Shown here: positions 5,017 to 6,060 of the stretch, piece after piece | How the letters are laid out: every line of letters starts with the position of its first letter | How positions within the stretch are numbered: position 1 is the first letter of the stretch | NCBI GenBank assembly: GCA_046761065.1 | Contig: JBHIFL010000111.1 | Location: 1-11,510, forward strand | Length of the DNA stretch: 11,510 nucleotides | Direction: 5' to 3' | Origin: Candidatus Heimdallarchaeota archaeon | GTDB taxonomy: Archaea; Asgardarchaeota; Wukongarchaeia; Wukongarchaeales; JBHIFL01 | Translations under genes and position numbers: made by a program | Notes under the pieces: generated by a model | The model's database searches: none | What the model was told of the DNA's origin: nothing | What the model saw: only the letters and a program-made list of their open reading frames with translations

Positions 5017-6060
5017 TTATTCGATTCTGATGACAAACTTCAACGGTTGAGTTAAGAGAGAATCCACAACTCGTACTATAAATGTCTTAGGGAAGATCTC
5101 TTGTGTCACAGGAGAGTTTAATGGGATCAATTTTTGCTCGTAGAAAACCTTAGGATCGGATAGGATAATTCCTCGTTGTTTGATTAGCTGCTGGATTACA
5201 TCCCCAAGGGGTTCCCCTTCTTTGATTATGGACACACTTTCCACAAGTTTGTATGCTTCCGAACAAACAACACACGCGGGATTTCGCTCCACAGGAATTT
5301 GTAAGAAATGATCTTCAAGGGCGTTGTACTGAAAAAAGCCTCCGGGTTCTTTACCCGTTCCGAATAACAATCGAAAGATCTGAATTCCCATCAGGCCGCC
5401 AATGGTACTACTCATTGCAGAAAAGGCAGGTAATGGTGGAAAAATTGATTCATTTACCTCTTGATCCTTCGATCCGACAGCTGGACAGAGATCGACTAGT
5501 TTTTCTTGAGGGATCATCGGATGACAAGCCATACACGGCGTTTTTTTGGGGATAACCACCTGAATGTGGCCAAGCTGACCGGCAAGTTCCCCCATTTTTT
5601 CGCCTCTTATTCCTCCCATCCCTCCATCTACCAAAGGGATCATTTCTTTCACTGCTATTGAATTGAGAAAGAACCGGGCTTCCCAAGTGTCAACTGAGCT
5701 AACAATCACATTAACATTCTTAAAAATCGTCTCATCTATTTTTTCGACAGGTTTGTTGAATGCTATAATATCTACTTCGAGATTTATTTCATTAAGGCGA
5801 TCTTTGGCTACGATAGCTTTATTTTTTCCTACGTCCTCTAAACGGAACAAAAATTGGCGATTAAGGTTTGTTCCTTCAATCGTATCATAATCACAAAGGT
5901 AAAGTGTGCCAATTCCTGCTAATGTGAGGTCTGTGGCAATAACGACTCCAAGTGCCCCTACACCTGCTAGGAATACACTAGATGTGGTGATCTTTTCTTG
6001 ATCCCATCCAATTATCCGTTTTTGCCTATCATATCGGTCGATGGACATAGTTATTGCCAC
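5017..6060 (-). CDS. Ubiquitin-activating E1-like enzyme (ThiF/UBA superfamily) with a putative C-terminal ubiquitin-fold E2-binding domain
   Basis: 347 aa. Motifs: RYDRQ, GVGALG nucleotide loop, DYDTIEGTNLNRQFLF..EDVGKNKA, VDTWEAR, PLVDGG, Zn-binding CxxC pairs C176/C179 and C263/C266, and candidate catalytic C192. A ~80-aa C-terminal domain follows. The start is GTG 6060 or ATG 6048. Confidence 0.9.
   Translation of the reverse strand: MAITMSIDRYDRQKRIIGWDQEKITTSSVFLAGVGALGVVIATDLTLAGIGTLYLCDYDTIEGTNLNRQFLFRLEDVGKNKAIVAKDRLNEINLEVDIIAFNKPVEKIDETIFKNVNVIVSSVDTWEARFFLNSIAVKEMIPLVDGGMGGIRGEKMGELAGQLGHIQVVIPKKTPCMACHPMIPQEKLVDLCPAVGSKDQEVNESIFPPLPAFSAMSSTIGGLMGIQIFRLLFGTGKEPGGFFQYNALEDHFLQIPVERNPACVVCSEAYKLVESVSIIKEGEPLGDVIQQLIKQRGIILSDPKVFYEQKLIPLNSPVTQEIFPKTFIVRVVDSLLTQPLKFVIRIE

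Follow-up and report, generated by a model that had tools for sequence, protein, structure and literature searches.

A short-form, single-chain E1, probably the ubiquitin-activating enzyme of a Heimdallarchaeota archaeon, encoded away from the ubiquitin, E2 and RING genes

Ubiquitin cascades of the E1-E2-E3 type (activating, conjugating and ligating enzymes) are an established part of the biology of Asgard archaea, and the results reported here leave that view unchanged. An archaeal cascade that has been reconstituted biochemically is that of Caldiarchaeum subterraneum, with its ubiquitin, E1, E2 and RING E3 components (Hennell James et al. 2017, PMC5654768). In the same work the E1-like enzyme was modelled on the NEDD8 E1 (3GZN), "ubiquitin-like (UBL) domains" were drawn in both, and Asgard homologs were marked in a tree. 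According to a review, the Caldiarchaeum enzyme mirrors Uba3 and has a distinct cysteine-bearing domain of about 60 amino acids (aa) (PMC11354881), and the Asgard gene clusters that encode ubiquitin, E2, E1 and RING proteins have been surveyed by InterPro domain (Hatano et al. 2022, PMC9192718). Here we describe an E1 gene in a stretch of 11,510 nucleotides (nt) of Candidatus Heimdallarchaeota archaeon (contig JBHIFL010000111.1 of assembly GCA_046761065.1, positions 1 to 11,510; hereafter the window). The genome is a metagenome-assembled genome (MAG) of 4.4 Mb in 234 contigs, 91% complete and with 8.2% estimated contamination. Judged from its sequence, its predicted fold, its family membership and its genomic context, the gene probably encodes the ubiquitin-activating enzyme of this archaeon, a short-form, single-chain E1 with a ubiquitin-fold domain (UFD) at its C-terminal end that would recruit the E2.

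The window E1 can be set beside three described types of enzyme. Like the Caldiarchaeum E1-like protein, the enzyme is an archaeal E1 made of one chain, and the C-terminal trimming that Caldiarchaeum pro-ubiquitin requires is matched by the GGNLT end of the ubiquitin encoded in this genome. The two differ around the catalytic cysteine, where the Cys domain of about 60 aa in Caldiarchaeum compares with a predicted disordered loop, some 30 residues long, in the window E1. UBA3 presents the same order of parts, namely an adenylation domain, zinc-binding CxxC pairs, a cysteine after the first CxxC and a C-terminal UFD, and it is the best structural match to the window E1 both for the whole model and for the isolated tail (2NVU, 3GZN, 1Y8X, 3FN1). 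Unlike UBA3, however, the window E1 has neither a separate helical catalytic-Cys domain nor the UBA3-type C..PR..EHC motif, and no APPBP1-type partner is encoded in this genome or in the 80 ortholog loci considered below. With UBA5, MoeB and ThiF it shares a single ThiF domain per chain and a cysteine on a short loop. However, MoeB-like matches are roughly 250 aa long and stop near the second CxxC, which makes them too short for the UFD that the window E1 has, and in UBA5 the E2 is recruited by a peptide at the C-terminus, not by a UFD. A prediction made earlier from the DNA sequence (the original prediction) had presented a UBA3-like UFD as the novelty of this gene; that distinction falls away, since a UBL-domain model of the Caldiarchaeum E1-like enzyme had already been published (PMC5654768). 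In the literature searched, the coverage of which was incomplete, we found no paper that analyses the C-terminal domain of Asgard E1s.

The motifs on which the original prediction was built, their spacing and the tail were all found in the gene, which lies on the minus strand, a detail that the prediction had omitted. The features of the gene are as follows.

5017-6060, minus strand: E1 gene, which encodes 347 aa if read from the GTG at 6060 and has its stop codon at 5017-5019
5269-6006, minus strand: ThiF/E1 adenylation domain, residues 19-264 (Pfam PF00899)
Residues 33-38, within the ThiF domain: GxGxxG, invariant in the family alignment
5845-5871, minus strand: TNLNRQFLF signature, residues 64-72, which aligns with SNLNRQFLF of human UBA1
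Residues 64-82 of the E1: TNLNRQFLFRLEDVGKNKA
Residues 142-147 of the E1: PLVDGG
5578-5610, minus strand: 11-aa insertion RGEKMGELAGQ, residues 151-161, predicted to be disordered
Residues 174-179 of the E1: TPCMAC, with C192 lying 13 residues past C179
5524-5535, minus strand: first zinc CxxC (C176, C179), invariant in the 22-sequence family alignment
5428-5520, minus strand: predicted flexible loop, residues 181-211, which replaces the eukaryotic catalytic-Cys domain and contains C192
5485-5487, minus strand: codon of C192
Residues 258-267 of the E1: ERNPACVVCS
5263-5274, minus strand: second zinc CxxC (C263, C266), invariant in the family alignment
5020-5268, minus strand: predicted C-terminal ubiquitin-fold domain, residues 265-347 (83 aa), which ends in FVIRIE without GG

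An identical protein in a public gene call (P0002) begins at an ATG four codons later and has 343 aa, which makes the ATG at 6048, rather than the GTG, the probable true start. The Pfam ThiF profile (PF00899) matches residues 19-264 with an E-value of 1.3e-51 (175.5 bits, where the cut-off is 28.1), and the full length of the protein, tail included, is conserved in relatives; both observations argue that the gene and the quoted motifs are not a chance reading. The Pfam scan of the E1 placed nothing on the C-terminal tail, which extends from about residue 268 to residue 347.

One line of evidence for the identity of the gene is the family to which it belongs. Beyond the protein itself, a word-indexed search recovered just three relatives over the full length (83%, 81% and 38% identity), after which the matches fell off steeply. 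An exhaustive profile search matched about 20 representative clusters over the full length including the tail, in size classes of about 335-365 aa and 388-418 aa, and the next-best matches after the family were eukaryotic proteins of UBA1 and UBA3 size. Furthermore, a tblastn scan of species-representative genomes, queried with eight family sequences, found full-length relatives (residues ~7-347, 32-38% identity, E 1e-59 to 1e-76) in 97 genome assemblies, nearly all of them Asgard. Their labels span Heimdall-, Hermod-, Hod-, Thor-, Hel-, Baldr-, Frey-, Jord-, Odin- and Kariarchaeota; Bathyarchaeia and Thermoproteota each label one record. Neighbourhoods were counted over the 80 ortholog loci that were kept. 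A ubiquitin homolog is present in 68 of these (upstream on the same strand in 67), an E2 in 60 (upstream on the same strand in 35, where the median gap is 68 nt) and a RING protein in 33; a second ThiF gene was found in none of the 80.

Full-length orthologs thus sit in the ubiquitin gene clusters already described from Asgard archaea, and the window E1 can be assigned securely to the E1 family of those clusters. Stripped of its tail, it scores 279 bits against a hidden Markov model (HMM) of the Asgard family that was built without the window E1 and its near relatives, and 123 and 111 bits against those of the UBA1 active domain and of UBA3, respectively. With the E1s of the Asgard operons it shares full-length homology including the tail (32-42% identity), the zinc cysteines, the catalytic-position cysteine, a beta-grasp of about 80 aa and a length of 330-360 aa. 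It differs from them in standing beside a phosphoglucomutase gene instead of ubiquitin, E2 and RING genes, and in its 11-aa insert and long branch, with just two close relatives in protein collections. In the alignments, the insert at residues 151-161 is confined to the window protein and its 81-83% identical relatives. The suggestion that the enzyme is an unusual pre-eukaryotic intermediate therefore does not hold: it is an ordinary Asgard operon E1 of a kind present in 97 assemblies, and the long-form paralogs treated below are more UBA3-like.

The other parts of a ubiquitin system are encoded in the same MAG on a second contig (C33; the contig of the window is C111). C33 carries a 154-aa UBC-type E2 at ~20 kb (Pfam UQ_con 2.7e-36, with HPN...C present), an 84-aa pro-ubiquitin with its GGNLT end at ~39 kb, a small RING protein at ~42 kb, and Vps23-UEV and Vps28 proteins at 43-45 kb, and this collection reads as an Asgard-type ubiquitin/ESCRT-I gene set. 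The E1-E2-E3 set that the original prediction expected in the genome is thus encoded, C33 contributing ubiquitin, the RING protein and an E2 of canonical type. The MAG as a whole holds a complete eukaryote-type ubiquitylation set (pro-ubiquitin, E1, E2, RING and ESCRT-I UEV) despite an E1 that is encoded far away, and operon-based surveys could miss such an E1 because its gene lies far from those of ubiquitin, E2 and RING. The ubiquitin-system genes of C33 are themselves spread over about 25 kb, with enolase and glycerate-kinase-like (DUF4147/MOFRL) genes between them, in contrast to the tight RING-ubiquitin-E2-E1 block of most Asgard loci examined.

Three ThiF genes are found in the genome, on C3, on C4 and, as the window E1, on C111; by context neither of the other two is APPBP1/SAE1-like. 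The C3 paralog (345 aa; L004 420-2229) is MoeB-like. It has a C-terminal extension of about 100 aa without a Pfam match, and its gene adjoins genes for a small Rab/Arf-like GTPase and a histidyl-tRNA synthetase. The C4 paralog (254 aa; L005 1462-3714, minus strand) overlaps the end of a gene for a 360-aa JAB/MPN protease, upstream of which another gene encodes a protein that carries the E2-like motif HPF..GAICLG. From its gene content the C4 locus looks like a prokaryote-type E2-JAMM-E1 operon beside the eukaryote-type system. The C4 paralog was itself considered as a ubiquitin E1 and ruled out: it lies downstream of the JAB protease and the protein with the E2-like motif, has no UFD and is MoeB-like in the tree described below.

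The adenylation core of the window E1 keeps its catalytic and zinc residues. The 22-sequence family alignment shows no variation at the four zinc cysteines or at G33, G35, G38, D57, D59, N65, K81, D124 and R129, and the conservation of C192 is at least 90%. When the E1 was compared with the sequences of solved structures by phmmer, the active adenylation domains of UBA1 ranked first, and C192 aligned with position 632 in full-length human UBA1 (chain 9mc4_A), which we take to be the catalytic cysteine. This alignment and the conservation of C192 bear out the description of the protein as a single-chain, single-ThiF E1 with a cysteine at the catalytic position. There is no second, inactive adenylation domain in the same chain, and the arginine of the N-terminal RYDRQ and the ATP site occupy one E1 chain.

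The AlphaFold model of the E1 has a predicted local distance difference test score (pLDDT) of 81 and is of low confidence only at residues 1-6, 151-159 and 181-211, the last two segments falling below 50. Because the model is confident everywhere else, C192 is predicted to sit on a flexible loop of about 30 residues instead of in a folded Cys domain. The proposal that the large cysteine-bearing insertion of eukaryotic E1s is reduced here to a short loop holds in that the Cys domain is absent; the length of ~18 aa given for the loop compares with the longer low-confidence segment of residues 181-211. In a Foldseek search the whole model matched UBA3 best (2nvu_B, E 4e-24), and it matched UBA5, MoeB and ThiF structures at E-values of 1e-22 to 1e-19. 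The signature motif, which had been taken as eukaryote-type, does match that of human UBA1 (SNLNRQFLFR), and the MoeB-like paralog of the same genome has SNLPRQILY at this place. However, because the JAB-adjacent paralog on C4 reads SNMNRQLLF, the motif is not exclusive to eukaryote-type E1s.

The second part of the argument concerns the tail. Modelled on its own with AlphaFold (AF2), it yields a beta-grasp fold with a pLDDT of 88. In a Foldseek search of 350,542 chains the top match was the E2-binding domain of UBA3 (3fn1_A, TMq 0.66, and likewise 1y8x_B and 2lq7), followed by UFDs from UBA1, UBA6 and the SUMO E1 (UBA2). VIA-align, which works independently of Foldseek, placed the UBA3 UFD at ranks 1-3 among 48,161 representative chains (Z 8.5, 8.3 and 7.7), with SUMO-E1 UFDs at Z 6.5-6.7 and generic or free UBLs at about 6. 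At the level of profiles, hhalign aligned the tail with 11 eukaryotic UBA3 C-terminal domains at a probability of 93.4% over 80 columns; compared with UBA3, the tail is without some 14-19 residues of the central part of the UFD. The original prediction had seen in the tail the pattern with which the UBA3 UFD ends, and of this pattern the conserved V.D...P part lines up in the alignment, if partly. Taken as a model, the tail is a beta-grasp in the place and with the shape of an E1 UFD, that of UBA3 being the closest. A fused modifier was ruled out as an identity for the tail, the C-terminus of which is RIE without Gly-Gly.

Family and fold together suggest how the enzyme would work. The ThiF domain would bind ATP and the processed Gly-Gly end of the ubiquitin of this genome and form the ubiquitin adenylate (Ub-AMP), after which C192, on its short flexible loop, would accept ubiquitin as a thioester. 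The C-terminal UFD would then recruit the canonical UBC-type E2 for transthiolation, as do the UFDs of UBA3, UBA2 and UBA1. The enzyme is probably a homodimer like MoeB, ThiF and UBA5, which is suggested by the presence of the RYDRQ arginine and the ATP site in one chain and by the lack of a second ThiF gene nearby in ortholog loci. Finally, in this lineage the gene would have moved from the neighbourhood of ubiquitin, E2 and RING to a site just downstream of a phosphoglucomutase gene.

A number of observations weigh against reading the gene as a ubiquitin E1 with an E2-recruiting tail, beginning with those that concern the core. MoeB and UbaA also have a cysteine at the equivalent loop position, and C192 by itself is therefore no proof of a thioester mechanism. 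A quick maximum-likelihood (ML) tree (LG+C20; 111 rows and 163 columns from the N-terminal half of the adenylation domain, in a set without named UbaA, UBA5 or ATG7 sequences) placed the window E1 within a 60-row group of the Asgard family and the eukaryotic UBA1/UBA2/UBA3 clade, leaving outside it the rows of MoeB-like and ThiF-rhodanese proteins and the two paralogs from this genome. However, the value of the Shimodaira-Hasegawa-like approximate likelihood-ratio test (SH-aLRT) for this placement is only 83, and the approximately unbiased (AU) test did not reject a tree with the window E1 forced into the MoeB-like group (p 0.38); consequently, phylogeny alone cannot carry the claim, for which the tail-free HMM scores and the operon context were used in its place. 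Pairwise comparisons of the tail-free E1 with MoeB-like and UBA1-like proteins gave about equal medians of 104 and 107 bits. A "short MoeB-like" HMM scored 245 bits, which is no clean MoeB score, the set having been chosen by length alone and possibly containing truncated E1-family members. The best NCBIfam scores belong to MoeB and ThiF models and all fall under the cut-off (MoeB 113 of 449 bits, ThiF 109.5 of 275, UbaA 84 of 450).

On these grounds one could see in the protein a MoeB/UbaA-type adenylyltransferase that serves sulfur carriers or SAMP-like modifiers, works without an E2 and has eukaryote-like motifs by convergence or as plesiomorphies. We consider this highly improbable, given that the curated MoeB, ThiF and UbaA cut-offs are all missed by far, that orthologs are found in ubiquitin-E2-E1 operons, that a UFD is present for which MoeB-like proteins have no room, that the genome already holds a MoeB-like paralog, and that the ML tree groups the window E1 with the Asgard and eukaryotic E1s. 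The tree favours a grouping of the core with the Asgard and eukaryotic E1s to a moderate degree, with the reservation of the AU test and of a core about equally distant from eukaryotic E1s and MoeB-like proteins, and a specifically eukaryote-like core is only moderately supported. The prediction was contradicted outright at none of the three points on which it could have failed: the tail models as a beta-grasp, the genome encodes an E2, and the E1 stands apart from the MoeB-like rows in the ML tree, a MoeB placement not being rejected by the AU test.

The points against that concern the tail are of another kind. Its Foldseek E-values are weak, at 5e-3 and above, and models that lack clear relatives can come near to a VIA-align Z of about 8. 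The tail is only about 12% identical to UBA3 UFDs. A profile of 21 tails, compared with PDB sequences, matched designed ubiquitin variants at 1e-6 and the UBLs of RAD23, ubiquilin and DSK2 at about 1e-4; none of the 60 matches listed is an E1 UFD. Pfam E2_bind (PF08825) had no match in a search of the whole genome at E <= 1. The scan of the tail at E <= 10 returned no E2_bind, UBA_e1_C or UAE_UbL, giving only sub-threshold beta-grasp matches (RBD for this tail, Ubiquitin_5 for the P0005 tail). Finally, hhalign gave the tail profile a probability of 92.4% over 60 columns against Asgard ubiquitins, nearly that obtained with the UBA3 UFD. By these comparisons the tail sequence appears about equally near to ubiquitin itself and to the UBA3 UFD, and because the profile matches ubiquitin and UBLs equally well, the predicted role in E2 docking rests on position and fold.

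The same data would suit an active E1 whose tail is a RAD23/ubiquilin-type UBL that addresses the proteasome, ESCRT or UEV proteins, or an autoregulatory pseudo-substrate, with the E2 engaged through other surfaces, and a Vps23-UEV ubiquitin-binding protein is indeed encoded in the genome. Nevertheless, we regard this alternative as unlikely. The tail directly follows the second CxxC, which is the position of all canonical E1 UFDs; E1 UFDs stand above free UBLs in two independent structure searches; the hhalign match to the UFD covers the whole domain; and the tail is conserved along with the adjacent E2 gene across Asgard lineages. The UBA3-like UFD of the original prediction accordingly stands on structure comparison and profile alignment, and is qualified by the lack of an E2_bind match and by the nearness of ubiquitin.

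The remaining points concern the place of the gene. In this genome the E1 on C111 is unlinked from ubiquitin, E2 and RING on C33, and the guanine-plus-cytosine (GC) content of the two contigs is 0.394 and 0.45, respectively, both inside the compositional range of the MAG and neither typical of it. That C111 and C33 come from one organism is plausible, and no firmer, because contigs of differing GC have been binned in a MAG with the contamination stated above. Moreover, in the literature searched we found no biochemical report on the window E1 or on any Asgard ortholog. In the window itself the neighbours of the E1 are sugar-nucleotide and glycosyltransferase genes (PGM/PMM, an epimerase, GT2 and a nucleotidyltransferase), the nearest of which is the following.

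6099-7430, minus strand: phosphoglucomutase/phosphomannomutase (PGM/PMM) gene, directly upstream of the E1 gene (Pfam PGM_PMM I-IV)

The gap between this gene and the co-oriented E1 is 38-50 nt, so that the two are possibly co-transcribed. It would be unusual for an E1 to share a transcript with a sugar-phosphate mutase, and the pairing may be mere rearrangement; the PGM/PMM gene is context and stands outside the ubiquitin system. An 81%-identical relative (L100 4669-7080) keeps the order PGM-E1-epimerase-GT2 and the nucleotidyltransferase neighbour too. Two genomes of the same order have the E1 with no ubiquitin, E2, RING or PGM gene within 7-10 kb, and eight loci of the same phylum have ubiquitin and/or E2 beside the E1. 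Linkage to these genes is a frequent trait of the family and does not strictly define it.

These arrangements raise the question of whether the displaced E1 has changed its job, and now activates another ubiquitin-like protein of the genome, for instance a different small beta-grasp protein, or serves a sugar-nucleotide or glycosylation pathway instead of the ubiquitin and E2 of C33. The loss of linkage here and in the two relatives of the same order, the gene order kept in the 81%-identical relative, and a sequence that shares no more than about 40% identity with other members of the family and has a clade-specific 11-aa insert all speak for such a change. We nonetheless judge it quite unlikely. 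Nothing else in the genome belongs to the Asgard ubiquitin-operon E1 family, and both further ThiF paralogs have likely partners of their own. The window E1 has kept the UFD and C192 as well as every catalytic and zinc residue. The adjacency to PGM occurs only in the closest clade and is absent in the relatives of the same order, which fits a rearrangement without functional meaning. A ubiquitin E1 that has merely been relocated thus remains the reading that we prefer.

The comparison with long-form Asgard paralogs gives this enzyme its evolutionary setting. Paralogs of about 410 aa (P0008, P0067, P0081, P0083 and P0086), from Hodarchaeales and Hermodarchaeota, align with the window E1 throughout the adenylation domain and the C-terminal beta-grasp tail. 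They differ from it in a helical insertion of about 60-70 aa past the catalytic cysteine, with the motif C-x4-PR-x2-EHC. Animal and fungal UBA3 carry the same motif (PLCTIA.TPRLPEHC), and the short forms have none. By sequence, it is the long-form paralogs and not the window E1 that are the nearest look-alikes of UBA3. No long-form paralog is present among the three ThiF genes of this genome; both forms apparently coexist in the genomes of some relatives.

Structure prediction and profile comparison thus describe the common short-form Asgard E1 as a combination of a MoeB/UBA5-like core that lacks a Cys domain with a UBA3-like UFD, and the short form and the long-form paralogs offer testable steps in the assembly of canonical E1s. 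We advance, tentatively and as a doubtful case, the possibility that the short form is the ancestral architecture, with a probably homodimeric MoeB-like core, a cysteine on a bare loop and an already fused UFD for E2 recruitment whose sequence can still be recognised as akin to ubiquitin. If true, recruitment of E2 by a UFD would be older than heterodimerisation and than the insertion of the Cys domain, which is first seen in the long forms of Hod- and Hermodarchaeota, and an ordered path from MoeB to UBA3 would emerge. The UFD itself might then have originated by fusion of a copy of the ubiquitin gene from the adjacent operon.

Scans of the window for tRNA genes and Rfam families gave no match, and a few other features of it deserve mention. 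Positions 7431-9158, some 1.7 kb, hold no long open reading frame, and three plus-strand fragments lie there in different frames. The fragment at 7785-8006 (plus strand) has a signal-peptide-like start, MKSLKYVTVLFLIYLLVQAF, and that at 8608-8895 (plus strand) a collagen-like repeat, GPQGSQGPQGLQGE, at its end; the region may be a frameshifted or decayed gene for a secreted protein. Within the glycosylation cluster, the gene at 2545-3798 (plus strand) encodes a 417-aa protein with a calcineurin-like metallophosphoesterase domain at residues 8-201 and about 200 C-terminal aa without a Pfam match. Finally, the gene at 9159-9854 (plus strand), which adjoins a pyridine nucleotide-disulfide oxidoreductase gene, encodes a protein of 231 aa with a winged-helix-like N-terminus and weak matches to the nuclease domains Mrr_cat (E 1.6e-5) and NERD (2e-4).

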